Made by a program: the position numbers and the translations under genes. Positions 433 to 16,117 of a DNA stretch of 64,000 nucleotides are shown here, one piece after another. Each line of letters opens with the position of its first letter. Position 1 is the first letter of the stretch. Source of the DNA: a phage; sequence record NC_129898.1, one strand, 5' to 3'. The notes below the pieces were generated by a model. The model had not been told where the DNA came from. It worked only from the letters and a program-made list of their open reading frames with translations, and ran no database searches.

Positions 433-717
433 CTACCAAGTCACTGTCAAGTAGGCAACCGTGTTATTTTTCTCCGGAGAGATGCCAACAACATCCACCT
501 GCAGACCTCCTGCCCTCAAATCTCCAACGATGTGTGGAAAGTAGTCTGAGAGGTGTGATGGGAGATTTATCGAAAATCCACATCCCAGAAAGCCTGCTAA
601 CGCTTTATTTTGTATATCCCCTACAATCGCATCATAAATAGAGTTAAGCTCGTCAGGAAGCGTTACAGGACGTTTTAGAGCTAACTGGTGCAACTTGTCC
701 TTAGCACTCATTTTCAT
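433..717 (-). CDS. hypothetical protein
   Basis: Track ORF 433-786 trimmed to the internal ATG at 717-715, which overlaps the methyltransferase stop (ATGA). Confidence 0.4.
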   Translation of the reverse strand: MKMSAKDKLHQLALKRPVTLPDELNSIYDAIVGDIQNKALAGFLGCGFSINLPSHLSDYFPHIVGDLRAGGLQVDVVGISPEKNNTVAYLTVTW

Positions 718-1247
718 TTCAAGTCTGCCTCTGGTGGTGCCAACCACATAAATGGCGGCAAGTCTAGACGGTTTTTCTTGTCCCATACAAAATATGCATA
801 TGCCTGCCCATCCGTTCTACCATTGGATTGGAATGACGGACGCTTAGATATTGTGATCACAGTGGTAGGTGCATTATCAAGCCACCATTCAAATCTGGCC
901 TTGCTTTCCAGAAAATTAAGACGCAAAAGCATAATAACTACATCGGCATCTTTCAACGCCTTGTCTACAAACTCACGAGCCAAGCTGTACGGTGGGTTGG
1001 TGATAATACAGTCAACATGGTTGTATTCTGTATTCAGATAGTCAACACCTTCTTGGATTTCTCCCCATGCAGATCCTAACGGCATACGGGAGTAGAACAC
1101 ACCTGAGGCACTATTCCTGCAAGGCTCTAAGTAAGTCCAGTCTTCTGGGAACGGAATAAGGTCATACAGCCCTTCTGCACACCACTCCGGTGTCACATAC
1201 TCATCGTAAGCGTTACGTTGTTCATCAGGTTTTCTAGCACAAGTCAT
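714..1247 (-). CDS. DNA methyltransferase (N6-adenine/N4-cytosine class, NPPY motif)
   Basis: Motif IV 'DCIITNPPYS' typical of amino-methyltransferases; no cognate restriction enzyme nearby. Confidence 0.65.
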   Translation of the reverse strand: MTCARKPDEQRNAYDEYVTPEWCAEGLYDLIPFPEDWTYLEPCRNSASGVFYSRMPLGSAWGEIQEGVDYLNTEYNHVDCIITNPPYSLAREFVDKALKDADVVIMLLRLNFLESKARFEWWLDNAPTTVITISKRPSFQSNGRTDGQAYAYFVWDKKNRLDLPPFMWLAPPEADLK

Positions 1248-1263
1248 GCAAATCTCCAGATCA

Positions 1264-1290
1264 TAAAAGCCCTCCGAAGAGGGCTTTAGG
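1264..1290 (-). terminator. terminator-like hairpin after the protease gene
   Basis: Minus-strand transcript AGCCCUC-uucg-GAGGGCU followed by UUUAU. Confidence 0.45.
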
Positions 1291-1298
1291 ATTAATGT

Positions 1299-2348
1299 TT
1301 AAGCTTCTTCGACAATTCCTGCGCCCAGGATTTTTTCATTGAGCTCTTTTGCTGTTTTAATAATATTGTCCACCAGACGCTTACGAGTCTTATCTTTCAC
1401 CTGAACTTCTTCTCCGCCGTTCAGGGTGGTTTTCAATTGGGACAAAATGTCCTGAAGCTCTACCACAGAGAATCGCTGCAGATCTTCCGAGGTAATCTCA
1501 CCCAGTGCAATCTTAACGGTCTCACCACTCTCCATCTGCAGATTCAGGAACACAGTGTGAACATCACCTTTCATACCATTTTCTTTTGCAGACTCAACAG
1601 CATGAACCAGCTCGTCCAAAGATGTGCATTGGTGAATCTCTGGCAGGCCTGCTTCGCCTAGCACACCTTCTTCATCACTTTTTGCCAAAAGCTTTTTCGG
1701 TTTCTGTCCATTCTGAATGCGCTGAATGTTTTCATCGTCCAGAATAATAGCACCAGTTCGAGATGCCAGCTCTTCTCCATCTAACCACACTTCGCCGCCA
1801 GCTGTGATGGATGCGATCTCATCTTCTGTTAGCACTCCACCGTAGTATTTTTCGATCAGGCGTTCAAAACGTTTCTTCCAGTAGTTGACCTGGGTATTCA
1901 TGTTCACACCGTTACCATAGGTGCCACCTTGATAATAGTGGAACATAAATTCTGTGTCCGGAGCCACAGTTCGTTCTTTGCAACCCATCCATAAGATTGT
2001 TCCTGCTGAACAGCACATCCCTTCAGCGTGTACAACAACGCTTGCCTGAGACTCGCGGAATGCCTGCAAATACGCCATAGCAATGTGAACGCAACCACCA
2101 GGGCTGTTAATGATTACACGGATACTTTCTTCTGGCTGAGCCATACGAATCGTCTGTAGACGAGACATATGATCTTGCAGGTCGTCCAAATCGTCAATAT
2201 AAAGAACGTGGTCAACAACAGGTGTTGGGTAGCTGTATGTTTCCATAATACCACCCGGCATACCAAACATTTTGTTACTCATAGGTTCGAAACCGTTCTG
2301 TTTTTCTTTCATGCCGTGTACCATGGTGCTGCGAGGTGTTAAATTCAT
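1299..2348 (-). CDS. ClpP/S49-like serine protease with C-terminal extension
   Basis: 'IINSPGGCV' ClpP-type motif and 'MCCSAGT' serine region; about 120 extra C-terminal residues. Confidence 0.65.
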   Translation of the reverse strand: MNLTPRSTMVHGMKEKQNGFEPMSNKMFGMPGGIMETYSYPTPVVDHVLYIDDLDDLQDHMSRLQTIRMAQPEESIRVIINSPGGCVHIAMAYLQAFRESQASVVVHAEGMCCSAGTILWMGCKERTVAPDTEFMFHYYQGGTYGNGVNMNTQVNYWKKRFERLIEKYYGGVLTEDEIASITAGGEVWLDGEELASRTGAIILDDENIQRIQNGQKPKKLLAKSDEEGVLGEAGLPEIHQCTSLDELVHAVESAKENGMKGDVHTVFLNLQMESGETVKIALGEITSEDLQRFSVVELQDILSQLKTTLNGGEEVQVKDKTRKRLVDNIIKTAKELNEKILGAGIVEEA

Positions 2349-2408
2349 GAGAAATCCTTAATATTGGAAGTTGAAAGCTATTTATTTAAACCTGATTCAC
2401 ATTTACCT

Positions 2409-2720
2409 TTATTTAGCAATCACTATAGAATACTTACGATTGTCAGAAGCATCACAGCTCAATGATTGCCAGTCTACCACATACCACGTATCATTGTCAA
2501 CAATTACTTTATCGCCTGTTCTGTAGCAGGTGCTGCTTTCAATAATCCTAGACTCGATAAAGAATCTGTGTCGGCGCTCACGTAGCAACGCTAAGTTGAT
2601 TATATTACCACCACTGTCCTTGGTCCACACATTCTTGGATCCTTTATTTGCCAAAATTGTCTCGCCGTTATATACAAACAGGCAGTATATTTTATTCAGT
2701 CTCTCTTGTATTGTAGCCAT
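2409..2720 (-). CDS. hypothetical protein
   Basis: Track ORF trimmed to the ATG at 2720 (AAGGAG RBS upstream); the track start at 2768 lies upstream of a predicted promoter. Confidence 0.4.
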   Translation of the reverse strand: MATIQERLNKIYCLFVYNGETILANKGSKNVWTKDSGGNIINLALLRERRHRFFIESRIIESSTCYRTGDKVIVDNDTWYVVDWQSLSCDASDNRKYSIVIAK

Positions 2721-2750
2721 ACTGTGTCCTTCTCCTTGTTTTGTCCAGTA

Positions 2751-2779
2751 ATAATATCTAAAGCTCACCTGTTTGTCAA
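2751..2779 (-). promoter_or_regulatory. sigma70-like promoter on the minus strand (TTGACA-17-TATTAT)
   Basis: Read on the reverse complement; downstream of a terminator-like hairpin at 2786-2815. Confidence 0.4.
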
Positions 2780-2823
2780 CAACTGTTTTAGATATTTAAG
2801 GGTGGAATAACCACCCTTCTGTA

Positions 2824-3612
2824 TTACTCGGAAACAGGAGTCCAAATATGATTTGCACGATCCTCAATAAGATTGAGTGCAATCTGACGGCCTAACCCGG
2901 AACGAACGACATCGTCTGGACTATCAAAGCTAATCATTCCAACCTCAGGATCTGGATGACGCGTAAAGAAATCTGTCACCCATGCAAGGCCAGATTTACC
3001 AGGGATGTCACGTTGGCTGTTATCGCCCATAATTACAAGGGTGGCCTGATCAGAGATCCTTGTGATAATTGACAACATTTCTTCAGGATTGGTTTGCTGT
3101 GCTTCATCAATAAGGACAAAGCATCGTTCATCAAAACTACGACCACGAATGCTTTCAACCTCACAAATCTCGATACGGCTGTTCTGACCGTCTCCAAGCA
3201 TTGCTGCAAAAGCACCTTTGCCAACACGACGACAAATCGTGTCCATCATGCTTCTAAGATAGGGCCACAGTTTCTGCATTGCATTTCCAGGTTTAAATCC
3301 TGAAGTCTTTCCTGTCTGAACGTAAGGGCGTGCAACAATGATCTTATCAATCTCGTTCTTGCGCAGAAGATCCCCTGCATATGCAGATGCCATGAATGTC
3401 TTACCGGATCCAAACACACCGTTTACAATGATAATCTTACGCGACCCTAGATAATCAAGATACTTTTGCTGCTTTTTATTCATTGGTCGGAGAGCTGGAG
3501 CGGTGTGCTCTCGTTCGTCAGCAAATTTTTCAGCAGCCTTACGCAGGCGATCAGATTTGCGAGCCTCTCTAGCTTCATCACGCATGCGTTTTGTTTCTTT
3601 AGCTCGACCCAT
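2824..3612 (-). CDS. phoH: PhoH-like ATPase
   Basis: Walker A 'GVFGSGKT', Walker B 'VLIDEAQ' and PhoH-typical C-terminal region. Confidence 0.85.
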   Translation of the reverse strand: MGRAKETKRMRDEAREARKSDRLRKAAEKFADEREHTAPALRPMNKKQQKYLDYLGSRKIIIVNGVFGSGKTFMASAYAGDLLRKNEIDKIIVARPYVQTGKTSGFKPGNAMQKLWPYLRSMMDTICRRVGKGAFAAMLGDGQNSRIEICEVESIRGRSFDERCFVLIDEAQQTNPEEMLSIITRISDQATLVIMGDNSQRDIPGKSGLAWVTDFFTRHPDPEVGMISFDSPDDVVRSGLGRQIALNLIEDRANHIWTPVSE

Positions 3613-3650
3613 GTTGGGACTCCTTTCAGATTGAGATGTGCCAAGTACTT

Positions 3651-4001
3651 TTACTGCAATAGTTTTTCAATAGCCGCTTCCATGCTGCTTGCAACAGCCT
3701 GAACTCGGATATTCATCTCTTCTTGGTGGATCAGCTCCTTAAGCTCTTTAATGGTAAATTCTTTAGAGAAACCTTCTACCATAATCTTGTGTAAGGCTTC
3801 TTGCGTGTCTACCTGCAAGAACTTTTCCAGTTTGTTGGCAGAGGCTTCTAAATCAGCCCGAATACGAGGGTCATCTGTGCGATTCAGCATCAGGCGTAAG
3901 CCATCAAGATTAGTAGAAATAGCGTCTGCATGTTGAGTAACTAATCGTGGCAAAATGAGATCTACAAACTTATTAGCCAAATCGATACGTTCTTGTGTCA
4001 C
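3651..4001 (-). CDS. hypothetical protein
   Basis: 116-aa ORF starting at GTG; its start overlaps the stop of the small upstream ORF. Confidence 0.45.
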   Translation of the reverse strand: MTQERIDLANKFVDLILPRLVTQHADAISTNLDGLRLMLNRTDDPRIRADLEASANKLEKFLQVDTQEALHKIMVEGFSKEFTIKELKELIHQEEMNIRVQAVASSMEAAIEKLLQ

Positions 4002-4111
4002 TGTTGCACCCCCTCTTCATCCTCATGATGTTTCTTTTCACGCTTGTGTTTTTTCTTAAGCTCAAGCGCAATCTCTTTTTTGTACGCCTTCTTCAAGGCC
4101 TTTTTAGCCAT
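3998..4111 (-). CDS. small lysine-rich basic protein (37 aa)
   Basis: Own translation MAKKALKKAYKKEIALELKKKHKREKKHHEDEEGVQQ; strong RBS (AGAGGAGGTG) and promoter-like TTGACA-18-TATAAT just upstream; below the track size cut-off. Confidence 0.3.
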   Translation of the reverse strand: MAKKALKKAYKKEIALELKKKHKREKKHHEDEEGVQQ

Positions 4112-4140
4112 TTGGCACCTCCTCTGCTTTCATTACGCTA

Positions 4141-4170
4141 ATTATAACCAACTTAACAAGACTTTGTCAA
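4141..4170 (-). promoter_or_regulatory. sigma70-like promoter on the minus strand (TTGACA-18-TATAAT)
   Basis: Read on the reverse complement, upstream of the small basic ORF. Confidence 0.4.
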
Positions 4171-4173
4171 CAA

Positions 4174-4647
4174 TTAGTCAACCTGAACCCAACCGCCTGC
4201 TACCTTTTTAAACATTCTTTGGTTATCACTGCCTCGGAATGGTTTCTTGGTTGGTAAATCTTTTACATACTTTCCATCAATGACGATATCAGCCAGTTTA
4301 AGAACATCACTAGAGATATGCTCAAATGTGAACCCAGTATACACAAGAATAGTTTTCTTGTCACCAAACTTTTCCTTAATTCTCCTCATAAGGTTGATAA
4401 TATCTGGCTCATTATAAGTAGCCAAAGGCTCTCCACCAAGTAAAGAAATACCGCATACAGATTCATTGTCTAAATCCAACAAAATTTTCTGCAAATCTTC
4501 TTCGGTGAACTCTCTTCCTTTATCTTTTGACCAAAATGCTTGATTAAAGCAACTGGGACAAGCGTGTGGGCACCCAGATACCCACAAAGCTGTCCTAATA
4601 CCTGGCCCCTCGGTGTAAGATATCTCTGTATACCCGACAATATTCAT
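4174..4647 (-). CDS. nrdG: anaerobic ribonucleotide reductase activating protein (radical SAM)
   Basis: 'GCPHACPSC' CxxxCxxC cluster; N-terminus aligns with NrdG when started at the ATG at 4647 rather than the track start at 4665. Confidence 0.8.
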   Translation of the reverse strand: MNIVGYTEISYTEGPGIRTALWVSGCPHACPSCFNQAFWSKDKGREFTEEDLQKILLDLDNESVCGISLLGGEPLATYNEPDIINLMRRIKEKFGDKKTILVYTGFTFEHISSDVLKLADIVIDGKYVKDLPTKKPFRGSDNQRMFKKVAGGWVQVD

Positions 4648-4760
4648 ACATACTCCGCATCGCATTTAGGACAATGCCAAATAAAATCGTCCAGTGCCTT
4701 ACACCAACGAAGATTGCAATGACAACCACACTTGCAAATTTTATAAATACCTGTAGACAT
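4644..4760 (-). CDS. small cysteine-rich (zinc-ribbon-like) protein, 38 aa
   Basis: Own translation MSTGIYKICKCGCHCNLRWCKALDDFIWHCPKCDAEYV; AGGAGGTG RBS; stop overlaps the nrdG ATG (ATGA); not in the track. Confidence 0.35.
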   Translation of the reverse strand: MSTGIYKICKCGCHCNLRWCKALDDFIWHCPKCDAEYV

Positions 4761-4823
4761 GCTGCACCTCCTAGTTTACTGTGTGACAACAATATGCAAC
4801 ATCCTTGTGACTTTTGTCAAGTA

Positions 4824-5786
4824 TCAGCAACCACAACTTCCGTAGTGCTTAACCCGTTCTATAACCTCCGCTTGCTTACCTTTATTGTAAGGACGGGAGT
4901 TTGGACTGGACAGATACCCGGATACACGTCTAATCACACTGATCGTTCCCTCTTCATGGTTTCCACACTCTGGGCATACAAAGCCTTTAGCTGTTGCACT
5001 GAACTCACCAGAGAATCCACACTTAAGACATTTATCCACAGGCTGGTTAATACCAAAATACATAATGTGTTTATATCCGAAATCAACAAGAGCTTCCAAA
5101 GCATCTAAGTTGTTTTTCAGATTTGGTGTCTCTATGTACCCAATGTTGCCACCAGAGGAGATCATAGCAAAACCTTCCTCATACTTCCACTTATCAAAAG
5201 GCGAGCTATTGATCCATACTGGCTGATGGAAACTGTTGGTGAGGTATTCATGCTCGTGCTTCAACACTTCTGGGTATTCACGATCCAGACAGGTTGCAGC
5301 TTTATAGCATAAACTCTCAGAAGGTGTGCCGTACAAGCTAAATGCTAGTCCACTTTCCTTCTTGTATCGCTCACAAGCATCTTTCATGTGCTGAAGGATT
5401 CCAAGAGCTAAAGCCTTGTCACCCTCTCTGCCCAAAATCTGACAGGTTTCATACACACCAATATACCCAATACTGATGGAAGCGTACCCGTCATAGAAGA
5501 GTTTATCGATACTCTCTTCAGGATCCAGGCTAGCAAGAGCTCCTTCACACCACATGATAGGGTTATGCCCTGCCTTTGTTCCTTTTAGACGGTTAACTCT
5601 TACAAGGTGAGCCTCATATGCCAAATCCAAATATTCGTCAAGAACTGCAAAGAAATCAACACCTTCCGTTTTAGCTTTTGCCGCAATCATTGGTAGGTTA
5701 AGGCTAACAACACCCAAGTTGAATCTGCCAAGGTATTTCTCCTCGCCTGTTACAGGGTCGCTATATTTCGATAAGAAACTTCTACA
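4824..5786 (-). CDS. nrdD: anaerobic ribonucleotide reductase, exon 2 (C-terminal part)
   Basis: Begins 'CRSFLS'; C-terminal zinc ribbon CLKC...CPEC and glycyl-radical motif 'RVSGYL'; in frame with exon 1 after removing 5787-6548. Confidence 0.7.
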   Translation of the reverse strand, partial: CRSFLSKYSDPVTGEEKYLGRFNLGVVSLNLPMIAAKAKTEGVDFFAVLDEYLDLAYEAHLVRVNRLKGTKAGHNPIMWCEGALASLDPEESIDKLFYDGYASISIGYIGVYETCQILGREGDKALALGILQHMKDACERYKKESGLAFSLYGTPSESLCYKAATCLDREYPEVLKHEHEYLTNSFHQPVWINSSPFDKWKYEEGFAMISSGGNIGYIETPNLKNNLDALEALVDFGYKHIMYFGINQPVDKCLKCGFSGEFSATAKGFVCPECGNHEEGTISVIRRVSGYLSSPNSRPYNKGKQAEVIERVKHYGSCGC

Positions 5787-6548
5787 CATTATGTTCAAGG
5801 TGGTTCGCAAGGCCACCCCCGCACCATTACGTGCTGCTGCATGTCCCCATGCAGATCAGACTATATCTTCACACTTAGTGTGTCTACCATTTCGAGTGTC
5901 ATCAGCTTACACCCTACACCGCTACATTCATCACGGTTAGTCGTTAGGCATTTCGTAACAGAACTCGTAATCATAGTTATTAGGTGCACCACGTTTCAGG
6001 ATAGCAGATATTCTTTTTCTATCTATTCCTAAAACATCAGCACAACATCTCAGACTCTTAAAGTGAATAACCACACCAGTTAATTTGTGGGTGGCTTTCA
6101 CCCCGTGACATCTTGTGTAAAAAGCATAACAGTTGTTGTCGTATCCTTCTTGAGTATTGTCTGGGCAAGCTCCCCACTCAAGGTTGTATACGCTGTTATC
6201 TTTCCTGTTGTCACCTTTGTGCTTAACATATGGTAAATTGTCTGGATTTGGTAAAAACGCTTCAGCAACAAGTCTGTGAACCCTTAGGCAAACAGTCTTT
6301 TTGTTCTTGCGTATCCTGACAAGACGGTAACCTGTGTTTATCTCTTCCCACGAATGAATAATTCTTTCATTTTCGTATCGGGTGCAATAAACATTGCCCA
6401 TCTCGTCAATTTCATAACCTTCAAAATCACGAATTTGTTTTCTCATTTCAGGACTCCTCTTAGTCAGGAGTTCTGTTACGTTTAGCACGGGATTGTCCGT
6501 TCTGGAGTTTCCCCGTTTAGATAGATTTTACATGAGCAGTTATAGTTT
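5787..6548 (-). mobile_element. group I intron in nrdD carrying an HNH homing endonuclease ORF
   Basis: Exon 1 ends in U (..AUGGGU) with a complementary guide 'GCUCAU' 11 nt into the insert; 'AAGAUAUAGUCU' resembles the group I core S element; hairpin CUGCAUG-GGGA-CAUGCAG; insert ends in G; splicing joins SMG to CRSFL in frame. Confidence 0.6.
5937..6446 (-). CDS. HNH homing endonuclease (intron-encoded)
   Basis: HNH-type region 'VHRLVAEAF...HKGDNRKDNSVYNLEW'; AAGAGGAG RBS before the ATG at 6446. Confidence 0.75.
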   Translation of the reverse strand: MRKQIRDFEGYEIDEMGNVYCTRYENERIIHSWEEINTGYRLVRIRKNKKTVCLRVHRLVAEAFLPNPDNLPYVKHKGDNRKDNSVYNLEWGACPDNTQEGYDNNCYAFYTRCHGVKATHKLTGVVIHFKSLRCCADVLGIDRKRISAILKRGAPNNYDYEFCYEMPND

Positions 6549-7709
6549 ACCCATGCTTGTTACTTTGCCGTCTGTTGAACCTGTCACTTTACGATTTAGT
6601 GGAACAGAAACAAAGTCAGGATAAATCCGCTCTGCAGAGCATTCTAGAGCCAATCGTTTCAAATCGTAGTTAGGATCCCCAGGGTTCATGTTGACACCCT
6701 CCTCTAAGAAGAACAGCACTTTAGGAAACACAGGGGTGATCCGTTCTTCACCAAGACCCATTTTGTGGACTTTCAAGTAGTTTTTGGTAATCATTCTACC
6801 AAAGACCGAGGTATCCAGTCCTAAACTTAATGTGATGAATGGAGTTTGCCCGTTGACAGAAGTTAACGTATTGATTTGGTAGAGCAAAGTTTGCATACTA
6901 TCAAACACGTCTTTATCTGTCATTTGCATTGCAACAGTCTCAGCATCTGGCAACCAATGCTCCTGACAAAATTTAAGGTTCTTCTCATAGGTTGCTTCAG
7001 CATACTGTGCCAGATAATGATCAATATGGCTCATGGTTTGACCACCATATTGAGCACTAGCTACTGCACTAGAGATTTGGCTAAGGATTGTTGTTGCAAC
7101 CCCTATTGACTTCGGCTTACTGACATGGGCGTTGCCAATGTTGAATCCGTTTTCCAGCATATCCGGATAATTTACCAAACAACAGTTTGTTAACGGACTG
7201 ATCAGGTAGTCAAGATCATGCACATGGATGAAGCCTTTGTTGTGCTCTTCGGAGACACGGTCTGGCAGGATCTGTGTTGATGCAAGATGTTTGCTAAGGA
7301 TGCCTGCAAGCAGGTCACGATGAGTGTGTACATGATTAGTAGGCTTATTTGCGTTTTCTTTTGTAAATTCATCACAAGTACGATCCAAGAAGCCACTAAT
7401 ATCTGCAAGCAGTTTTCCACCTGCCTCTCTGTTATTATCTCTTGTCTGTCTATACTGGATGTATTCTCTGGCTGCACATTTTAAACCCATATCCATAAGA
7501 GCATCTTCAACAAGGATATGGATATTTTTTACAGAGATCGTGCACTGGTCGGTTGGCAGATTGTTGGCAACAACTTCATTAACCGCACAGGCAATCCGGT
7601 AAGCTTCTTCTTCAGTATGTCCAGACTCAAGTAAGGCGGACTCTGCCGCCTTGATCACCTTAATTCCGTTATAAAACTCTTCTCTACCGTCCCGTTTTAC
7701 AACTTTCAC
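6549..7709 (-). CDS. nrdD: anaerobic ribonucleotide reductase, exon 1 (N-terminal part with ATP cone)
   Basis: ATP-cone-like N-terminus (VKRDGREEF...); the track ORF continues 3 codons into the intron before a stop. Confidence 0.7.
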
Positions 7710-7984
7710 TTTTTCTCTCCAAAACCATTCTTAACAAAAGAGATGAAATCGTCAGCACCACCTATGTGGATACTGTCAAGGTTGCTTTCCAAGAAGATCT
7801 GAGGCAACGTTCTGGGAACAAATGGGCTACACTTCTCGATAAGCTCTTCTTTTGTGTATCCCTCACCTAGCGTCTTGTATACGAAAGGTATGCCTTTGCT
7901 GACTGCAAATTCTTTTGCTCTTACACAATGTGGGCAGTTATCCTTGCCGTAAATGATGATGAAAAAAGATTTTTCGCAGCTCAT
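7706..7984 (-). CDS. glutaredoxin/NrdH-like redoxin
   Basis: 92 aa with a CPHC active site in a thioredoxin-fold context, next to the nrd genes. Confidence 0.6.
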   Translation of the reverse strand: MSCEKSFFIIIYGKDNCPHCVRAKEFAVSKGIPFVYKTLGEGYTKEELIEKCSPFVPRTLPQIFLESNLDSIHIGGADDFISFVKNGFGEKK

Positions 7985-7987
7985 ATA

Positions 7988-9076
7988 TTAAAACTCCCAA
8001 ATTTCTTCTTCAGCGTCGTTAACGGTTGTGTTGACGCGGTAGTCGGTGTTAGACATTTCCTGGTTAGCCGTCTGTTGCAGTGAAGGTTTCATCCACACCT
8101 GCATAAACGGTAGCGGGTCCTTTGTTGGCGGCACAAAGTCTTTGTCGATGTCGTAATAATCATAAATCGGTGAGCAGTTATAGTCAACCCATTCTTTAAG
8201 CAACGGGGAATTAAGACCTATAATCGCTCTTCCTTCGCTGAAAATATAGTCACTCCAACCGTACTCCTTGGTCCGCACTTCGTCAAGAATTTCTTTTAAC
8301 TCACCCTTAATCTCAAGAAAGCTTTGCTCCCATGCAGGATCATCAAGCAGGATATCGATGATAGCAAAATCACCTTTCGAATGCAGCATTTCATCAAGCA
8401 TAATTTTTTGAACAAGTTGTGCCACTTGAACAAAAATACCTTGCTCAGCTACTGCGAACGTACATGCAAAACTTGCAATAAACTCAATACTTTCTAGAGC
8501 TAAAAGTGCAAAAAGTGCTCTAAGGATACATTTCCGTACAACATCTTCTTCAACACTGGAAGGATCCAGTCGGTATTTTGCACCAATAACCTCAAGCTCT
8601 TGCATATATTTGACAATAACTCCAGATCTGCTCAGCACGTTCTGGTTTTCCTGAATCTCTTCTATAATCTCGCGAGCATTAGGAAGGCATTGTCTAACAA
8701 TCTCTGAGTAAGTTAGTGCATGAAGAACCTCAATCTCAGACTGCTTCATCAACAAGGTGAAAAGCTCACTGTTGGTGATAAATGGTGAAAACAGACAAAT
8801 GATAGATCTTGCTGCAACACTGTCTGCCTCCCATTGCCACATCAGTGTCTGCACCATCACATCGTAAGTTGACTTTGAGCATGTTACGAAATCAGAAATA
8901 GACTGTGACAAATCTACTTCGTCCTCTGCCCAATCTTGTTCTTTTTGTTTTTTGTATAGTTCAAACAGCTGTGGATACTTTTTGTTAATAGAGTCGTACA
9001 TCCCCATCTGCTGTCCTAGAAACAGCGGATAATCACCAGTTTTATGAGCAGTGTTCTCAGTATTAAATACGGACAT
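7988..9076 (-). CDS. nrdB: ribonucleotide reductase small subunit (class Ia)
   Basis: Ferritin-like protein of the right size immediately downstream of nrdA. Confidence 0.8.
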   Translation of the reverse strand: MSVFNTENTAHKTGDYPLFLGQQMGMYDSINKKYPQLFELYKKQKEQDWAEDEVDLSQSISDFVTCSKSTYDVMVQTLMWQWEADSVAARSIICLFSPFITNSELFTLLMKQSEIEVLHALTYSEIVRQCLPNAREIIEEIQENQNVLSRSGVIVKYMQELEVIGAKYRLDPSSVEEDVVRKCILRALFALLALESIEFIASFACTFAVAEQGIFVQVAQLVQKIMLDEMLHSKGDFAIIDILLDDPAWEQSFLEIKGELKEILDEVRTKEYGWSDYIFSEGRAIIGLNSPLLKEWVDYNCSPIYDYYDIDKDFVPPTKDPLPFMQVWMKPSLQQTANQEMSNTDYRVNTTVNDAEEEIWEF

Positions 9077-9082
9077 TATTCT

Positions 9083-9110
9083 ACCTCTAAAATGGGGCCG
9101 AAGCCCCTTT
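9083..9110 (-). other. intercistronic hairpin between nrdA and nrdB
   Basis: GGGGC-uucg-GCCCC hairpin with a weak U-tract on the minus-strand transcript. Confidence 0.4.
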
Positions 9111-9114
9111 TAAA

Positions 9115-11430
9115 TTACAGTGCACAACTTTCGCAATACGGATCTTCAACTGAACTATCTGCAATCAAAGGATAGTTCTTTCTGGTTTCATCTTCAGCCT
9201 GTTTCTTCGCGTGAAGCTCCTCTGTCAAAGAGTCACCAGCACCAACCCGAGAGTTTAAGTAATACCATGTCTTCATCCCGAATTTAGTAGCACGGATAAG
9301 ATACCCAAGCTGCTCCTTCATTGAAATTTTACCATCTTTCAACTTGGTGTAATCAATATATAGGTCAGCACTGATTGCCTGTCCTGTGAATTTTTGAATC
9401 ACAGCATACATATCAATCATGTCGTTAGTATCAACGTCCCAAGCCGAGGTATAATACTCTTTCAGTTCATCATATTCAGGAACGATAAACAGCACCTGCC
9501 CTTGTGGTGACTTTTTAAAGATAATGTGTTCACGGACAGGATAAACCCCGTTAGTGGTGTTTGTTGCCAACGAAGAGCTTTCATTAGGCATGTATGCTTC
9601 AAGAACGCTATTACGTAGTCCACCGTTTTCAATAATTTCTTTACGTAACCCTTCCCAATCCTGCTTAAGAGAAGGATCTTTCACCACACTATCGACCTCT
9701 TTGTTATAAGTGTCGATTGGTAACCAACCATCTGGGTATTTTGTTTTATGCATCCACTCGCAGACACCACGCTCTTTTGCCAATCGTAAACTTGCCTTAT
9801 GCAAGCTGTAGCTGTGGAGCTCTGCAAGATCGTGAACAAGCTGTTTACTTTCAGGAGATCCGTAAGCAACCTTGTGGCTGGCAATAAAATGTGCAACATT
9901 GGTAAGGCCAACCCCGATGGATCTGCGTTTTTTAACAGTGCTCTCCATATTTTCATACGGATATGTCATGATTTCCATAACATTGTCAATCATAAGCACA
10001 GTGTAGTATGCAACATCCTCATACTCCTCTGGGGTAACCCTTCCCGCTACAAGAGATGACAGGAAGCACAATGCAACTTCGCCATCATCAACATCGTACT
10101 TGAAGATATTACGCATATCTGAATAGCCTTTTGTCGGGAGGGCTATTTCTGCACACAGGTTACTTGAATAGATTACATCTTTAAAAGGTGTATGTCTATT
10201 CATCTCATCTGTCCAGTACACATACAATCTGCCAACCTCGGTACGCTGAGTGATCAGTTCAACAGCAAGGTCTCTAGCACGGATCCATGTTTTAGGAATG
10301 CTGTCATCTTTAGCAATACGATCAACCTCTGCATCAAACTCCTCCATAGACATGGTGAAGATACCCTCGTGCAGTTGAGGCGCGTGCTTATAGGAAACAA
10401 GCATCCAATCTAAATTCTTAGCCACACGGTTGATAAATGACCTATTAATACCTATAGAGTAGTCCATGGTGTTGATTCTTTTTGAAGCAACAGTCATAGG
10501 GTTTCTCAAACGGATTAGCTCATCAATCTGTGGGTCTAGCGCAAGAAATGATACCGTTGCCGAACCTCCGCGTGATTGTTGTCTATTCTCCTTAACCCCA
10601 GCATCAATACCTCGATAATATGGAAGCTTACCCATATGTTTAATAGTGTTACCACGAACACCATCACCTGCAGATCTTGATGATAAATAGTAGCCAATAC
10701 CTGCTTGGTTAACCGTCATTGTGTACGCAACTTCACGTGCCACACCAATAGATTTTGCTGTATCGTCAGCTTTTATTACACAACAAGATGCATACCCTGT
10801 CTTACCTGTGCGTAGACCGTTTAAGTACGGTGTCGGGGCATTGATCTTTAAGTCTGACAGATAAGTGTATAATTTTACAACATCGTCAATACGGCGTTCT
10901 TTCGGCATATTTTTCATGACAGCCATCGCTATCCCCATGAACATCATCTGTGGGGATTCGAACAGGGTGTCTTTAAGAGTATCCTTGATCCCGTATTTGT
11001 CTCGAAACTGTTTAAGGACTGCATAGCCATAACCAAGGTCTTTACTGTGATCAATAACAGTGTCTAAAGTGTTTAACTCGGTAAAGCTATAACCCATATC
11101 CTCCCAATACCCTTTATCAACCATGGTGTTGTAAAATGATGGTAAGGAAGGGATCTTTGTAAATCCTCCAAAAGCCTCTTTATAAATCTGACCGATAAGA
11201 ACACGACCAGCCATACGAGAATGTGCTTCGTCCTTACGGCTAACACAGGAGTCTATAATAGCTTGGTTAACTTCTTTGGTTGTGCATCCATCATACAGCC
11301 GTTTGTATGCATCAAGTGCAATATGTGACCAATTGCCGTTACCGTCGTCACCGAAAATAGCTGCCTTATTTAAACGTTCCGGATCGAATGCCACTTCACA
11401 TCCGTTGCTTTTAATTACCTTGGTGATCAA
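9115..11430 (-). CDS. nrdA: ribonucleotide reductase large subunit (class Ia)
   Basis: N-terminal ATP cone, conserved 'SNLCAEIALPT' active-site region and C-terminal Cys pair (CESCAL). Confidence 0.9.
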   Translation of the reverse strand: MITKVIKSNGCEVAFDPERLNKAAIFGDDGNGNWSHIALDAYKRLYDGCTTKEVNQAIIDSCVSRKDEAHSRMAGRVLIGQIYKEAFGGFTKIPSLPSFYNTMVDKGYWEDMGYSFTELNTLDTVIDHSKDLGYGYAVLKQFRDKYGIKDTLKDTLFESPQMMFMGIAMAVMKNMPKERRIDDVVKLYTYLSDLKINAPTPYLNGLRTGKTGYASCCVIKADDTAKSIGVAREVAYTMTVNQAGIGYYLSSRSAGDGVRGNTIKHMGKLPYYRGIDAGVKENRQQSRGGSATVSFLALDPQIDELIRLRNPMTVASKRINTMDYSIGINRSFINRVAKNLDWMLVSYKHAPQLHEGIFTMSMEEFDAEVDRIAKDDSIPKTWIRARDLAVELITQRTEVGRLYVYWTDEMNRHTPFKDVIYSSNLCAEIALPTKGYSDMRNIFKYDVDDGEVALCFLSSLVAGRVTPEEYEDVAYYTVLMIDNVMEIMTYPYENMESTVKKRRSIGVGLTNVAHFIASHKVAYGSPESKQLVHDLAELHSYSLHKASLRLAKERGVCEWMHKTKYPDGWLPIDTYNKEVDSVVKDPSLKQDWEGLRKEIIENGGLRNSVLEAYMPNESSSLATNTTNGVYPVREHIIFKKSPQGQVLFIVPEYDELKEYYTSAWDVDTNDMIDMYAVIQKFTGQAISADLYIDYTKLKDGKISMKEQLGYLIRATKFGMKTWYYLNSRVGAGDSLTEELHAKKQAEDETRKNYPLIADSSVEDPYCESCAL

Positions 11431-11657
11431 TTTGCTTCCTCCACTTCATCAACGTATTTATCAAGGCAGGTATCAGTATCTTGTTGGATAAAGGTATCCT
11501 CTTCTACGGAGATATTTATAATTTTACCTGTATACTCGTCATAATAAACATCATCATACATTTTAATATCATTTGTCAGGCCGTTGAACCAAAGCCAACC
11601 AACATACTCTGACCGACTTGCAAAACCAAGATCCTTCCACTTGGAGTTATGACTCAT
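11427..11657 (-). CDS. hypothetical protein
   Basis: Track ORF trimmed to the internal ATG (MSHNSKW...) to avoid a 68-nt overlap with the upstream gene. Confidence 0.35.
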   Translation of the reverse strand: MSHNSKWKDLGFASRSEYVGWLWFNGLTNDIKMYDDVYYDEYTGKIINISVEEDTFIQQDTDTCLDKYVDEVEEAN

Positions 11658-11667
11658 CTTCACCACC

Positions 11668-12168
11668 TTAGCTTTCAATACCGAATAATTTTTCCAGGCG
11701 ATGCAGATCTTCAAAATTGAAAGGTTCATCAACAATATGAATATCTTCAGCCTTTTCAGATTGTTTTGTATACTTTCTTACATTAACACGATCTTCTACA
11801 GGGATATCATACGGAAGATCTTGAACAAGCATTGCCTCACCGGGTGCTTTATCTACATCTAAAATATCTACACCGTTATACATTTGCGGGTATCTAAAGT
11901 CTGCACGCATGACACCAGCAAATACATCTGCCTTTCGATAATGGGTTGGCTTATTTTTGCATCGAACGTTTTTTCCACGAAGAACATCAATATTTTTTAA
12001 ATCAAACCCTACAGCAAAGAGTGCAGCTCGGAGACCGTTTCGTGTGCGAACGTTAAATCCGGGAACAGTAGATAGGAAATCTAAAGTAACTGAAATAAAT
12101 GTCTTTTTAGGAATCATAACATTACTCATATCTGTCTCCATTTCTGGCTCACCAACAAAGTGAGCCAT
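11668..12168 (-). CDS. hypothetical protein
   Basis: 166-aa ORF between nrdA and thyX; no motif recognised. Confidence 0.5.
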   Translation of the reverse strand: MAHFVGEPEMETDMSNVMIPKKTFISVTLDFLSTVPGFNVRTRNGLRAALFAVGFDLKNIDVLRGKNVRCKNKPTHYRKADVFAGVMRADFRYPQMYNGVDILDVDKAPGEAMLVQDLPYDIPVEDRVNVRKYTKQSEKAEDIHIVDEPFNFEDLHRLEKLFGIES

Positions 12169-12227
12169 TATTATAGATTATCTGATGCTATTAGTCAACA
12201 CAAAAGTTACCTATCGCTGTGATAGGA

Positions 12228-13211
12228 TTAACCTTTCATGAAGTGGTTATTAAGCAGCTGTCTGTGCTGAACCCACCCACAAAAGTTGGCAGACCAGAAT
12301 TTACCATCACGGTCTTGATGGGTTACACCTTCCTGCCAAACACAGCTGTCCTGTGTGATTTCACATGAAGACAGGTAGTAGTTTAAACGTTCCATTGCGT
12401 TATCGTGATCCATAGGTGTTGCCTGGTGCTCGTAGGGGCTTGCATGAATACGATCCCCACCAATCAATTTTTTAGCCACACTGTCTGCCTTTTCAAACGT
12501 GCTGTCAATATTTCGATAAGATACTTGTGCACAGCAACTAGCACTAATAGACAGAGCTTCTTTAGTATCGAGAATGCAGAGCTTTCCTTCTGTGTCACGT
12601 ACAGCGTAGTTAAACTCTCCGTCCAAATAAACATGCTCTACATATGGGGTGTGCCATTGACCCGGTTTAAGGATTTCAGGAGTGCTATTCATAATAGCAT
12701 CCTGCATGCAATTAGCCAACATCTGAATCGTAGGATCCGCATCGTGCCAGCAACGTAGGTGGAAAAAATTATTCCACTCGGTGCTTGTTACAACTGTTTT
12801 CATGCGCTGAAACGGCTCTACTAAGCGGTTACATACTTGCTTATGGTAACCAGCAAGGGCGAACTTCTCTGCATGCCAAGCGGCGTTTTTTGCAGCTTCT
12901 TTCCAAAACTCTTCAGGGGTCATCTCCATGTCAGTGTATTCTACACGGATCTTTTGATCGTGTTCCCCTCCATCTTCCATTCCTCGCTTATTTACACCGA
13001 AGCGAACTGGCATTGCCGGATTCTCAACAATCTGCTGCAGCATCTTGCTGACAGGCACTGCACGAGAAGACATGGCGTTTCGGCTGAACATTCGATGTGT
13101 CATAAGCTCTGAGTGAATAATTCGAGGATATTCTAGCTCAAAAGTAGTGATACGCTTACCTTTCTCGGAAATGCTGTCGGCAATAATCTTTGCAGTGCAC
13201 AGTTTTAGCAT
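12228..13211 (-). CDS. thyX: flavin-dependent thymidylate synthase
   Basis: ThyX signature 'THRMFSRNAMSSRA' (RHR..S....S.R family motif). Confidence 0.85.
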   Translation of the reverse strand: MLKLCTAKIIADSISEKGKRITTFELEYPRIIHSELMTHRMFSRNAMSSRAVPVSKMLQQIVENPAMPVRFGVNKRGMEDGGEHDQKIRVEYTDMEMTPEEFWKEAAKNAAWHAEKFALAGYHKQVCNRLVEPFQRMKTVVTSTEWNNFFHLRCWHDADPTIQMLANCMQDAIMNSTPEILKPGQWHTPYVEHVYLDGEFNYAVRDTEGKLCILDTKEALSISASCCAQVSYRNIDSTFEKADSVAKKLIGGDRIHASPYEHQATPMDHDNAMERLNYYLSSCEITQDSCVWQEGVTHQDRDGKFWSANFCGWVQHRQLLNNHFMKG

Positions 13212-13411
13212 TATTTAGCTCTCCTTGTTTTAATTTTGGAAATTTCGTCTGGGTTTATGTTGGCCTTAAATGCAAGGTATCTGTTAAACATATCGGAGCA
13301 CATATCTTGGGTGATCCTAGAGGCATACACCAGCTTACCGCCCAGATCATACACCTCTATCCAGTCACCGTATCTGACTACAGGATCGCCACCTTTAGAA
13401 CATCTGCCCAT
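13211..13411 (-). CDS. hypothetical protein
   Basis: 66-aa ORF, tightly packed. Confidence 0.35.
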   Translation of the reverse strand: MGRCSKGGDPVVRYGDWIEVYDLGGKLVYASRITQDMCSDMFNRYLAFKANINPDEISKIKTRRAK

Positions 13412-13412
13412 T

Positions 13413-14006
13413 TCAAATACCTTCTAAAAACTTCCCTATTTTATACCAGCTGTTAGCGGTATAGTCAACACTAACCTTCAACTCCTCGAATTGCTCGTAA
13501 GGAGTGTCTTTTAAGATTTTAATAACTTCAGGACGTGAAGCGAATTGATTCAGGTATTCATGCCTGTCGTCAATTATAACATCTACAGCCACATTACCTT
13601 TGAAATGTGTGGCGTAGAAGCCGTGACCCTGGGTGTGATCGTCCAGATCCATAAAATCGCTGGTCCAACGCTTTAAGAACCTTGATTTAGATGCAAGGTG
13701 ACCTTTCTTACATACAGAGATAAATGCAAGCTTGTGACCACGAGCCACCAAATCTTTCATAACCTCAATAGCCCCCTCTTCAGGCTTAAGAAAGTCGTAG
13801 AGGAACGGGTCACTCCAGAAATCAAAAGGCCCTATGATGTTTTCTTTGGGGCGATCAGGCCAATACTTTGACAGATCGTAATACATCAGTCCGTTAGAAG
13901 GTTTAGCGACTGTCTTGCTGGCTGGGCCATACAAACGCTCTAGCCATTCCCACCATGCTGTTCCTGAGTCTACCAGTGTTAAATCTACATCAATTCCGAT
14001 CAGCAT
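13413..14006 (-). CDS. HAD-superfamily phosphatase (putative nucleotidase)
   Basis: HAD motif I 'GIDVDLTL' at the N-terminus; nucleotide-metabolism neighbourhood. Confidence 0.55.
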   Translation of the reverse strand: MLIGIDVDLTLVDSGTAWWEWLERLYGPASKTVAKPSNGLMYYDLSKYWPDRPKENIIGPFDFWSDPFLYDFLKPEEGAIEVMKDLVARGHKLAFISVCKKGHLASKSRFLKRWTSDFMDLDDHTQGHGFYATHFKGNVAVDVIIDDRHEYLNQFASRPEVIKILKDTPYEQFEELKVSVDYTANSWYKIGKFLEGI

Positions 14007-14011
14007 TGTTC

Positions 14012-14614
14012 TCAGACCTCTTTAGCATCAATATACTTGCACACAATCTCAGATGCGCACTCCCAAGGAGCTCCCTCAGGGTTAACAACATCAAACTCGA
14101 TACCTTTTATCCCGTTCTTCTCTAGGCTAAGGTAAGTTCTGGAATCATTTCCCCAATCATATCCTGCACGGTGGATACGGAACAGTAGAAGATCGCCACC
14201 TGTGCTGTATGCGTACTCGCCAAGGCATGCCAGCTCCTCTTTGAAGCCACCATCGGAGTAAACAACAACCCCTTTACCTTCAGGGAAATCTTTCTTCAAG
14301 GATGCGACTGCGGCCTTACCGAAAGCATCTTCACCAAAGATAGGTTTAATCAGATTTTCACTACAATGGATCATCCATTCTCGCGGAGAAACATGCTTGC
14401 CGTCTATCATTAAGAACGGGCACGGTTCTTCTTTGTAGCGGCGATCATAAAGTGCATTCCACAACTGTGGTGAAATACCAGCTGCCTTAATTGCCACACT
14501 GAATAGCATTTCCTTTACCTCGCGGTGATGCGAGTTTGGAATGGCTTCCAACAAAAGATCTGCGATATGGTCTTTTCCAGAACTTGGTGGAGCATTAAGA
14601 ACAATAATATCCAT
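14012..14614 (-). CDS. P-loop kinase, dNMP-kinase-like
   Basis: N-terminal 'NAPPSSGKD' resembles the phosphate-binding loop of phage dNMP kinases. Confidence 0.45.
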   Translation of the reverse strand: MDIIVLNAPPSSGKDHIADLLLEAIPNSHHREVKEMLFSVAIKAAGISPQLWNALYDRRYKEEPCPFLMIDGKHVSPREWMIHCSENLIKPIFGEDAFGKAAVASLKKDFPEGKGVVVYSDGGFKEELACLGEYAYSTGGDLLLFRIHRAGYDWGNDSRTYLSLEKNGIKGIEFDVVNPEGAPWECASEIVCKYIDAKEV

Positions 14615-14817
14615 TAAAAACCTCCGTGGTATTCTTCAACTGCATCAATAATACTTTTACACTTATCTACCAGTTCGTTAGCTACTACGGCATCGTCTTC
14701 CCAAACAGCCTCCTCAATCTGATCAAGCAGTGATCGCATCTTATTCATCATTTCTGGAACAAAGCTTTCTGAAAAGCTGTCTGGGATTGTTAACTCTGGT
14801 GTCATTGCGGTCTCCAA
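14614..14817 (-). CDS. hypothetical acidic protein
   Basis: 67-aa ORF. Confidence 0.35.
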   Translation of the reverse strand: METAMTPELTIPDSFSESFVPEMMNKMRSLLDQIEEAVWEDDAVVANELVDKCKSIIDAVEEYHGGF

Positions 14818-14832
14818 TCATACTGTGCGTTA

Positions 14833-15291
14833 TTAGAAGTTTGTTTTTACACGTCCCTTTTCATCTACTTCGTTGTTAGCTAAAAGCGTTACAAAGTCTG
14901 TAAAACGAACATGAAGAACTCTTTTCTTATCCAGGTATCCTAAAGCCACACCTGAGAAATTTACCATCAAAGGTGCTAAAGAAGCTCTAGCACTGAAATG
15001 CTGCTGTTCCACTCTTCCAACACCCTTAGTATAAGAAGGGTTGAGATTGTAAGTTCTGAATCCAAGTTTTGTTGGAGCTTTAGAATTAAAAACAACTTTA
15101 TAACGTTTCTTACTCAGCTTATGTTCCAGAATAAGCATGCCCTTTTCGCCACGGATAAGCTGAAAATCTGTAAAATGCTCTTTTAAGACAAAAGGTAGTG
15201 CCAGCCCCATAGCCTGCCCCCTTTGCACGGCTGTCTCACCAAAAGCTTTTGCATCAGTAAGCTCTTTAGTCAAGTCTATACTTTTGATCAT
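14833..15291 (-). CDS. hypothetical protein
   Basis: 152-aa ORF. Confidence 0.45.
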   Translation of the reverse strand: MIKSIDLTKELTDAKAFGETAVQRGQAMGLALPFVLKEHFTDFQLIRGEKGMLILEHKLSKKRYKVVFNSKAPTKLGFRTYNLNPSYTKGVGRVEQQHFSARASLAPLMVNFSGVALGYLDKKRVLHVRFTDFVTLLANNEVDEKGRVKTNF

Positions 15292-16102
15292 ACCTGGTCT
15301 CCAAAATGTATTGTAGTTCTTTCTTGCCTATACTCTTCATTCCAGCAGTCTTACCTGCTTCTTCTTGAAAAGAAGAATAGCATTCAGCAAACACTCTGTC
15401 AACACCATCAACTAAAGATTTTATGAAATATGTTGATTCTTCAGATTTTGGGTCATCCTTCCCCAATACTTTTCCAGCATTATACCCAACACGCCTTATG
15501 CAGAAGTCGTAGTCATCTGGTGTACTAAAAGAAAATAGCTTATTCTCCCCAATCTCTACAGGATCCCTATTGCACACCTTTTTCTCCCAAATTTGGAAAA
15601 CACATGGCACGTCATAAGGTTTGCCGTTGAGTAAAAACGAGTTCTTGGGGCACCTTTCGCTGTAAATAAGGTGCATCGACATGTCCAGTTTGTTTGCAAA
15701 AAATATTTTTTCAAATGTCCGTGGCAAGATGAAGGCTATAGCCCCACCAGGCTCTAGCAATGATGCACAGTGGTTAAAAAACTTGCAAGCTAAAGACGAA
15801 TTTTTGCCGAATGGAGGATTACCTATGAAGACATCAGCTTTAGGGTACACCTCTAAGAAGTTTGCCTTAATACACGGTGTTGGGCCTTCAAATTCAGGAT
15901 CTGGTACCAAATCGTACGACAGTATCTCTGAAAATAGTTTTGAAAAAGAACCCTTTCCAGCAGAAGGCTCAACGTATGCACAACTCCCATACTTACCTTT
16001 TACTTTACCAACAAGATATTCTGCATACTCAGGGTCTGTGTAATATTTGTCGTTGGACTCTTTCTTGCTCAAGGTGCCTCCAAAATGAAAAGGGAGGCGC
16101 AA
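15266..16102 (-). CDS. SAM-dependent methyltransferase (NPPF motif, probable DNA N6-adenine methyltransferase)
   Basis: Motif IV 'VFIGNPPFGKNSS'. Confidence 0.55.
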   Translation of the reverse strand: MRLPFHFGGTLSKKESNDKYYTDPEYAEYLVGKVKGKYGSCAYVEPSAGKGSFSKLFSEILSYDLVPDPEFEGPTPCIKANFLEVYPKADVFIGNPPFGKNSSLACKFFNHCASLLEPGGAIAFILPRTFEKIFFANKLDMSMHLIYSERCPKNSFLLNGKPYDVPCVFQIWEKKVCNRDPVEIGENKLFSFSTPDDYDFCIRRVGYNAGKVLGKDDPKSEESTYFIKSLVDGVDRVFAECYSSFQEEAGKTAGMKSIGKKELQYILETRYDQKYRLD

Positions 16103-16117
16103 GCCTCCCTCTACTTG

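Follow-up and report, generated by a model that had tools for sequence, protein, structure and literature searches.

Two genes on the minus strand of a phage DNA, within a stretch of 64,000 nucleotides (nt) of sequence record NC_129898.1 (hereafter the window), appear to encode solitary S-adenosylmethionine (AdoMet)-dependent DNA N6-adenine methyltransferases with different targets. They are gene 1, the open reading frame (ORF) 714–1247, and gene 2, the ORF 15266–16102. In the explanation that we favor, to which we give a probability of roughly 70%, both enzymes would be expressed from a nucleotide-metabolism and replication block and would methylate the phage's own replicating DNA, one at GATC and the other at GTAC. 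Gene 1 is a minimal 177-amino-acid (aa) enzyme acting on essentially every GATC; phage replication outpaces the Dam methylase of the host, and the GATC methylation of virions comes from this phage enzyme. Gene 2 would be a 268-aa M.TaqI-like enzyme with a C-terminal target-recognition domain, descended from a type II restriction–modification (RM) family with loss of the restriction partner. It would most likely be the writer of the gene-1-independent GT(m6A)C mark (m6A, N6-methyladenine) seen on every GTAC site of virion DNA.

The activity of gene 1 is experimentally CHARACTERISED. A 2025 PLoS Biology study selected escapers of the retrons Asa1 and Squ1 from phage Bas51, found that the escapers carried a "Bas51 N6 adenine methyltransferase" altered by D69G, D79G or T83P, and showed that retron defence was lost when D69G, D79G or T83P was rebuilt in the phage (PMC12548924). 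In the same study, nanopore 6mA calls gave a GATC logo, GATC methylation was nearly gone in the T83P mutant, and the methyltransferase was toxic when expressed in E. coli (PMC12548924). We examined the whole genome of Bas51 (Escherichia phage WalterGehring, MZ501111). Among its four annotated methyltransferases, D69, D79 and T83 occur together only in bas51_0176, which is identical to the gene 1 product at 177 of 177 residues and has the same genomic position, downstream of a ClpP-like protease gene; although the isolates differ, the proteins do not. Bas51 contains 703 GATC sites, that is, 1406 adenines. The methylated adenines at GATC, GTAC and other positions numbered 1405, 509 and 576 in the wild type and 35, 511 and 349 in T83P (S4 Table, PMC12548924). 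Thus, the phage enzyme covers essentially every GATC, and the host Dam alone covers almost none. We conclude, by direct genetic evidence on an identical protein, that gene 1 methylates the adenine of GATC. In these counts, 227 "other" m6A calls vanish together with the GATC enzyme of Bas51, possibly as its star activity.

Both gene products have the hallmarks of amino-methyltransferases. Motif IV lies in CIITNPPYSLA in gene 1, with NPPY at residues 84–87, and in VFIGNPPFGKN in gene 2. In both proteins an AdoMet motif I of the EPxxGxG type (EPCRNSASG in gene 1 and EPSAGKGSF in gene 2) stands upstream of it, and the N, P, P and G/F of motif IV are invariant among 65 and 71 homologs of the two proteins. 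NPPY and NPPF had been picked out in an earlier reading of the window made without database searches (the sequence-only reading), and they are confirmed at these minus-strand ORFs together with motif I, methyltransferase family matches and Rossmann models. In PHROGs, gene 1 matches phrog_799 "DNA methyltransferase" (5e-67), and gene 2 matches phrog_5172 "unknown function" (5e-125). The AlphaFold models of both proteins are Rossmann methyltransferases in which strands alternate with helices, with a predicted local distance difference test (pLDDT) score of 88 for gene 1 and 91 for gene 2. At E ≤ 1e-3 the gene 1 model matched more than 50 methyltransferases in the PDB and the gene 2 model more than 500, and the best structural matches of both were N6-adenine methyltransferases. 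In Pfam and NCBIfam scans of both proteins, every match was under its curated threshold, and neither protein matched PF02086 (α-class Dam) at E ≤ 1. Motif I lies about 40 residues ahead of motif IV in both, with no inserted domain, so that their order is not that of the α-class. The family profiles of gene 1 and gene 2 match each other weakly (2e-4 and 1e-6), and the two genes are therefore distant paralogs.

The relation of gene 1 to known Dam enzymes is one of function rather than of sequence. E. coli and T4 Dam (α-class, PF02086) make the same product, G(m6A)TC, but they have no detectable sequence relationship to gene 1 and a different motif order, and gene 1 lacks their inserted recognition domain; gene 1 and α-class Dam have converged on one target. 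The small phage Dam family (PF05869 "Dam" and TIGR01712 phage_N6A_met) is likewise small (about 170 aa), solitary, of phage origin and equipped with (D/N)PPY. Gene 1 matches this family weakly around motif IV, and the gene 1 homolog P0203 has a precomputed PF05869 assignment. However, gene 1 scored below both curated cut-offs (19.2 bits against 28.1 for PF05869, and 16.1 bits against 97.05 for TIGR01712), and phrog_799 is at best a distant sister group. The motif order of gene 1 is γ-like, yet only about 90 residues follow motif IV, without a separate domain. Its score against the γ-class Pfam model (13.3 bits) was below threshold, and its match to the PADLOC type II methyltransferase models was marginal (1e-3). 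Gene 1 is thus Dam-like by function, but by sequence it lies outside α-class Dam and, by the curated thresholds, outside PF05869 and TIGR01712.

Gene 2 in fact starts with the TTG at 16072, which lies behind a GGAGG at 16081–16077, is the start annotated in FV3 and Bas51, and gives a protein of 268 aa. The coordinates that the sequence-only reading gave for gene 1 stand, whereas its start for gene 2, 16102, has to be moved: positions 16073–16102 are a mechanical ORF extension of 30 nt into a terminator-like hairpin. Gene 2 could be aligned motif by motif to M.TaqI, a γ-class enzyme methylating TCGA, from the TP motif through the strand that follows motif IV. The two share the motif order (TP, EPxxGxGxF, an acidic motif II, GNPP[YF]G, then a helix and the strand "FxxP.T[FW]") and a C-terminal recognition domain, and M.TaqI is among the best structural matches of gene 2. 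They differ in that identity is about 20%, the template modeling score (TM-score) is about 0.4, the C-terminal domains are not superposable, the targets are different, and Pfam models of the Eco57I/TaqI type remain below threshold. Gene 2 scored 17.5 bits against PF07669 (Eco57I), for which the cut-off is 25.3, and reached the threshold of no γ-class Pfam model (PF07669, PF02384 N6_Mtase). The C-terminal domain of gene 2 spans about 130 aa (residues ~140–270) and is conserved, with R203, R204, G206 and other residues invariant.

More telling for the origin of gene 2 are the REBASE-derived type II methyltransferase models of PADLOC. MTase_II PDLC03255 matched at 2.4e-32, with residues 8–253 of the protein covering profile positions 2–249 of 269, and PDLC03256 matched at 5.4e-25. 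The family is large: a word-indexed search returned 832 matches, and an exhaustive search returned 5,976 cluster representatives (50% identity) at E ≤ 1e-3 and 1,604 at E ≤ 1e-30. PF26055 is precomputed for many gene 2 homologs; it was not matched in our local copy of Pfam, and we found no mention of it in searchable papers. Comparisons of gene 2 with solved structures, by sequence and by Foldseek, returned M.TaqI, M.BseCI, CamA and type I M subunits, as well as the RNA enzymes TrmN, PH1948/Ta1320 and METTL5, with TM-scores of about 0.4–0.5, and the relatives in the viral structure library were all uncharacterized. Whether made by sequence or by fold, these comparisons with solved and viral structures match the Rossmann core only, and they separate neither DNA from RNA enzymes nor one specificity from another.

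We then considered the genomic surroundings of the gene 2 family. We scanned one genome for each prokaryotic species and obtained 145 relatives, and the best 80 loci were examined for neighbors. In 21 of these 80, a conserved ORF of about 217 aa lies downstream on the same strand, the gap having a median of 26 nt. Rhodobacterales, Sphingomonadales and Verrucomicrobia are among the bacteria with this arrangement. The invariant motifs of this partner family are HGK-FE, D, P-x-x-x-K ("PTSIK") and QRRLQCS. One member matched the PADLOC model REase_II PDLC03460 "Type II restriction enzyme" (7.7e-11); PADLOC alone recognizes the family, which has no sequence relative in Pfam, NCBIfam or the PDB. It is probably an uncharacterized family of restriction endonucleases. 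Given its full-length matches to type II models and the restriction-enzyme neighbor of its relatives, gene 2 can be placed in a family of type II RM methyltransferases. The metagenomic homologs P0069 and P0075 lie in ORFan-rich surroundings with ankyrin, RCC1 and patatin neighbors.

No such partner accompanies the phage copies. The ORFs flanking gene 1 and gene 2 gave no nuclease or restriction-enzyme match in Pfam, PHROGs or PADLOC, and neither the window nor the complete Bas51 genome yielded a match to a profile of the ~217-aa partner (best E, 1.7). The phage copy of gene 2 is therefore a true orphan, and the earlier statement that neither gene adjoins an endonuclease holds. An EndoVII gene (17274–17879) and an HNH homing endonuclease (5937–6488) were considered as restriction partners and rejected. 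We also looked for a hidden additional amino-methyltransferase: the only other NPPF in the window, at 46403–46771 on the minus strand, lies in a 123-aa ORF without similarity to either methyltransferase profile.

The second mark in the Bas51 methylome provides a candidate target for gene 2. Bas51 has 258 GTAC sites, or 516 adenines, and with 509–511 of them methylated with or without gene 1 function, GTAC is saturated and independent of gene 1. The published study assigned the GTAC mark to no enzyme (PMC12548924). For rV5-like or Phapecoctavirus phages, our literature searches turned up no other usable methylome or restriction-digest data. When all ORFs of Bas51 and the window were scanned with motifs and profiles, only three amino-methyltransferase-like proteins emerged: bas51_0176; bas51_0200, which is 95% identical to gene 2; and bas51_0070. 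The fourth annotated methyltransferase, bas51_0074, is annotated as Dcm-like and of the C5 type, from which m6A is not expected. To our knowledge, E. coli K-12 has no GTAC methylase, and the GTAC enzyme should therefore be encoded by the phage. Gene 2 is the obvious candidate for this second saturated m6A motif. An enzyme of about 270 aa, γ-class and type II, is a typical writer of a 4-bp palindrome. A precedent of this kind is the small γ-class enzyme M.HpyAXII of Helicobacter pylori, which makes GT(m6A)C and has the Asn of its motif IV at position 87, compared with 85 in gene 2 counted from the TTG (PMC2588503). M.HpyAXII has 331 aa, and its partner belongs to the PabI family, unlike the ~217-aa family beside the gene 2 homologs. 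By elimination and enzyme class, we consider it probable that gene 2 writes the GTAC mark. For the fuller proposition, that gene 2 writes GT(m6A)C on Vequintavirus DNA and is an orphan offshoot of a large uncharacterized type II RM family composed of a ~269-aa methyltransferase and a ~217-aa restriction enzyme, we see about an even chance.

These data also bear on other claims of the sequence-only reading. It had allowed for virion DNA free of modified bases, and a near-identical phage carries m6A at both GATC and GTAC. Its two target specificities are supported in that both motifs are fully methylated in that phage; the link to gene 1 is direct, and the link to gene 2 is one that we infer. 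Its count of two methyltransferases is right for the window, while phages of this type have four in their complete genome, two of them, the counterparts of bas51_0070 and bas51_0074, outside the window.

Several points weigh against the explanation that we favor. Besides the indirect assignment of GTAC to gene 2, bas51_0070 is a competing candidate for the GTAC enzyme, and β-class GTAC methyltransferases do exist (M.RsaI and M.MjaV, both forming N4-methylcytosine, m4C). The core of gene 2 fits RNA m6A enzymes about as well as DNA ones: its family profile matches Ta1320 at 7e-4 and M.TaqI at 0.04, TrmN is the top Foldseek match, and some homologs are named "predicted RNA methylase" by JGI. At the cellular loci, GTAC avoidance gave no signal (observed/expected 0.84 with the methyltransferase and restriction enzyme, 0.87 with the methyltransferase only), and no 4-bp palindrome was differentially depleted between the two kinds of locus. 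As to a protective role, the Bas51 methyltransferase mutants still plate on K-12, with titres within about two- to threefold of wild type (PMC12548924), and phages of this group are strongly restricted by several RM systems.

The last of these points leads to the question of what the marks are for. The BASEL work described the Vequintavirinae as "exceptionally susceptible" to RM systems, and in its raw data the efficiency of plating of Bas51 was about 1e-4 with EcoRI and 0.1–0.5 with EcoKI, with no plaques on EcoRV or EcoP1I. The recognition sites of EcoRI, EcoRV, EcoP1I and EcoKI contain neither GATC nor GTAC; therefore, these data oppose broad protection but not narrow protection. G(m6A)TC blocks enzymes of the MboI/DpnII type, and GGT(m6A)CC is the mark of M.KpnI. 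GT(m6A)C blocks RsaI and R.HpyAXII (PMC2588503). Since the marks block the matching enzymes, motif-specific protection is mechanistically sound. The phage would then be immune only to nucleases requiring GATC or GTAC-containing sites in unmethylated form, such as those of the MboI/DpnII, RsaI/HpyAXII and KpnI types and possibly MutH. Protection is thus plausible only against enzymes cutting sites that contain GATC or GTAC, and self-protection as the purpose, which the sequence-only reading proposed, is something we infer. The demonstrated phenotypes of gene 1 are costs only, namely retron triggering and toxicity in E. coli; GATC methylation of retron multicopy single-stranded DNA sets off the abortive-infection retrons.

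The strongest alternative leaves the enzymatic assignments intact and changes the selective reason: both would be real DNA enzymes selected for phage DNA metabolism, for example to prevent MutHLS from cutting fast-replicating phage DNA at unmethylated GATC sites or to mark DNA, as phage P1 does, for its replication, packaging or gene regulation. We regard this as possible, if somewhat doubtful. The hosts are Dam+, so that a GATC mark gives no advantage against their own systems, and host Dam alone leaves only the 35 of 1406 adenines methylated. Both genes sit among replication and nucleotide-metabolism genes, and the phages have little general protection from RM systems. On the other hand, the viability of the Bas51 mutants gives no sign of an essential role, GT(m6A)C demonstrably blocks GTAC cutters, and gene 2 comes from an RM family. 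Selection for DNA metabolism can also coexist with the explanation that we favor.

A less likely alternative concerns the writer of the GTAC mark: gene 2 would be a DNA adenine methyltransferase with a non-GTAC target among the "other" calls, and GTAC would be methylated by the type III Mod-like bas51_0070 homolog. This possibility draws on the 349 m6A calls outside GATC and GTAC that are kept in T83P. bas51_0070 (Bas51 64456–65781) is a β-class protein of 441 aa (PF01555, 4e-42) with all catalytic motifs; its homolog, annotated as a type III Mod subunit by several phage depositors, is found at ≥95% identity in about 86 Vequintavirus records. The known GTAC methyltransferases, which include the β-class enzymes mentioned above, have a mutual identity of less than 18%. 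However, bas51_0070 is truncated: it corresponds to the first ~440 residues of a 567-aa E. coli methyltransferase, with 96% protein and 95% DNA identity, and this longer enzyme occurs on 24–29 of 5,426 complete E. coli chromosomes. In strain SMN152SH1 the 567-aa methyltransferase (locus L008:8998-10704) lies in a defence island at tRNA-Sec, where the gene order is MAD1 helix-turn-helix protein, SNF2 protein, Abi protein, hypothetical protein, methyltransferase and, directly after it, a 912-aa DEAD/DEAH helicase; the last two form a mod-res-like (type III) arrangement. Type III Mod enzymes recognize asymmetric sites of 5–6 bp and methylate one strand, and we know of none with a 4-bp palindromic target. 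In 140 kb, a 5-bp motif on one strand would be expected at about 275 sites, a number similar in magnitude to the 349 "other" calls kept in T83P. By comparison, the type II family of gene 2 consists of ~269-aa enzymes, a size typical for short palindromes, with M.HpyAXII as a precedent, and we consider it unlikely that bas51_0070 writes GTAC.

Apart from this question, the bas51_0070 homolog has the look of a Mod subunit that was captured recently, in truncated form, from a defence system of a type III-like or methylation-associated kind. As an anti-defence candidate, it would be of greater interest than both genes of the window.

The remaining alternative is that gene 2 methylates RNA (rRNA or tRNA m6A, as do METTL5, Ta1320 and TrmN) or protein in host takeover. 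NPPF is a motif IV of the METTL5 type, the family profile also matches METTL5 (0.05), and PH1948 is, with TrmN, among the top Foldseek matches of gene 2. METTL5, Ta1320, PH1948 and TrmN share the Rossmann core and NPPF with gene 2, but their profile and fold matches are weak and they lack its conserved C-terminal domain. The likeness to METTL5/COG2263-type enzymes, which have a single domain of ~200 aa, is not full-length: profile positions 4–109 of 261 align to Ta1320, and the query-normalized TM-scores are 0.42–0.45. We consider a substrate other than DNA very improbable, as the likeness to RNA enzymes is limited to the N-terminal Rossmann core of about 110–180 residues, the ~130-aa C-terminal domain falls inside the full-length match to type II DNA methyltransferases, the cellular homologs adjoin a type II restriction enzyme, and the GTAC mark on DNA needs an enzyme. 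RNA methylation by the NPPF protein, which the sequence-only reading had named as an outcome that would overturn it, is thus unlikely in view of the type II model matches and the restriction-enzyme neighbors.

Vequintaviruses are widely used in therapy and as model phages, and the methylation of their DNA at GATC and GTAC explains resistance to the diagnostic digests DpnII/MboI, RsaI and probably KpnI, as well as sensitivity to methyl-dependent enzymes and retrons. If gene 2 writes GTAC and the target is conserved in the family, the ~217-aa partners would represent restriction enzymes of a new family that cuts GTAC.

Much of this was already on record. Over its first 17 kb, the window shares 98% identity with FV3-like Escherichia myoviruses, which belong to the rV5-like genus Vequintavirus; at least 80% of this region is covered by 113 phage records, and near-identical copies of both genes occur in more than 100 Vequintavirus records. 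In the FV3 RefSeq entry, FV3_00115 is named "DNA methyltransferase", and FV3_00094 is named "putative DNA N6-adenine methyltransferase" after the similar rV5 gene of that name. Both genes have been annotated ever since rV5 and FV3 were sequenced, and more than 100 phage records list them as DNA N6-adenine methyltransferases. The sequence-only reading missed this annotation, the existing characterization of gene 1 and the two further methyltransferases of the phage. Overall, its finding is real but largely known, and nothing in it is new in kind. What is new is modest: GTAC is proposed as the target of gene 2, the gene 2 family is linked to an uncharacterized family of restriction enzymes, and the start codon is corrected.

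The coordinates of the two genes and of the other features are collected in Table 1.

Table 1 Features of the window and loci of the ~217-aa partner family
Feature	Position	Strand	Basis or remarks
Gene 1, 177-aa orphan DNA N6-adenine methyltransferase, GATC-specific	714..1247	-	ORF, phrog_799, model, identity to Bas51 bas51_0176
Signals upstream of gene 1	1254..1287	-	Hairpin 1287-1266 immediately behind the ClpP-like stop codon, followed by GGAG ribosome-binding site 1257-1254 and ATG; read from the sequence
Gene 2, 268-aa orphan γ-class (TaqI-like) DNA N6-adenine methyltransferase, predicted target GTAC	15266..16072	-	ORF, phrog_5172, PADLOC, model, M.TaqI-like motif order
Signals upstream of gene 2	16077..16112	-	Terminator-like hairpin 16112-16089 behind the DNA polymerase exonuclease subunit stop codon, followed by GGAGG ribosome-binding site 16081-16077
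Cluster genes	714-16102	-	ClpP-like protease, PhoH, NrdG/NrdD, glutaredoxin, NrdA/B, ThyX, 5'-nucleotidase-like protein, dNMP kinase, DNA polymerase exonuclease subunit
nrdD exon 1	~7709-6548	-	Stops at in-frame TAA 6542-6540
nrdD insertion	~6547-5751	-	~800 nt; holds HNH homing-endonuclease ORF 5937-6488
Group I intron match RF00028 in nrdD insertion	6071-5837	-	32.9 bits, sub-threshold
nrdD exon 2	~5750-4824	-	
Cellular loci with the ~217-aa partner (L012, L024, L034, L041, L043, L044, L049, L054, L055, L063, L064, L066-L068, L070, L072, L073, L077, L079, L080, L088)	Some 20-30 nt past the methyltransferase match		

The region 714–16102 is a minus-strand cluster of nucleotide-metabolism and replication genes, in which each methyltransferase gene is preceded by a GC-rich hairpin between the stop codon of the upstream gene and its own ribosome-binding site. 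The hairpin before gene 2 has a 10-bp stem with six G–C pairs followed by a T run and was the top-ranked terminator-like site of our scan. The hairpin before gene 1 was not listed by this consensus terminator scan, probably because its stem takes up the T run. The two hairpins suggest attenuated read-through expression of both methyltransferases.

Two further observations concern the records and the cluster. Dozens of entries in the range MG065635–MG065690 ("Campylobacter phage A140, C12, A13b ...") are 93–99% identical to E. coli Vequintaviruses across the region, both methyltransferases included; probably their Campylobacter jejuni host label is wrong or the records are contaminants. Finally, nrdD (anaerobic ribonucleotide reductase; 4824–7709, minus strand) is a split gene in the window. 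Its insertion is shared with phage VB-EcoM-WM, in which an apparent truncation of gene 2 (a 411-nt coding sequence and an opposite-strand ORF) proved to be an annotation artefact, positions 17813–18619 of PQ014731.1 being colinear with gene 2 at 97% identity with no gaps or stop codons. FV3 and Bas51 lack this nrdD insertion and have another one elsewhere in the gene.

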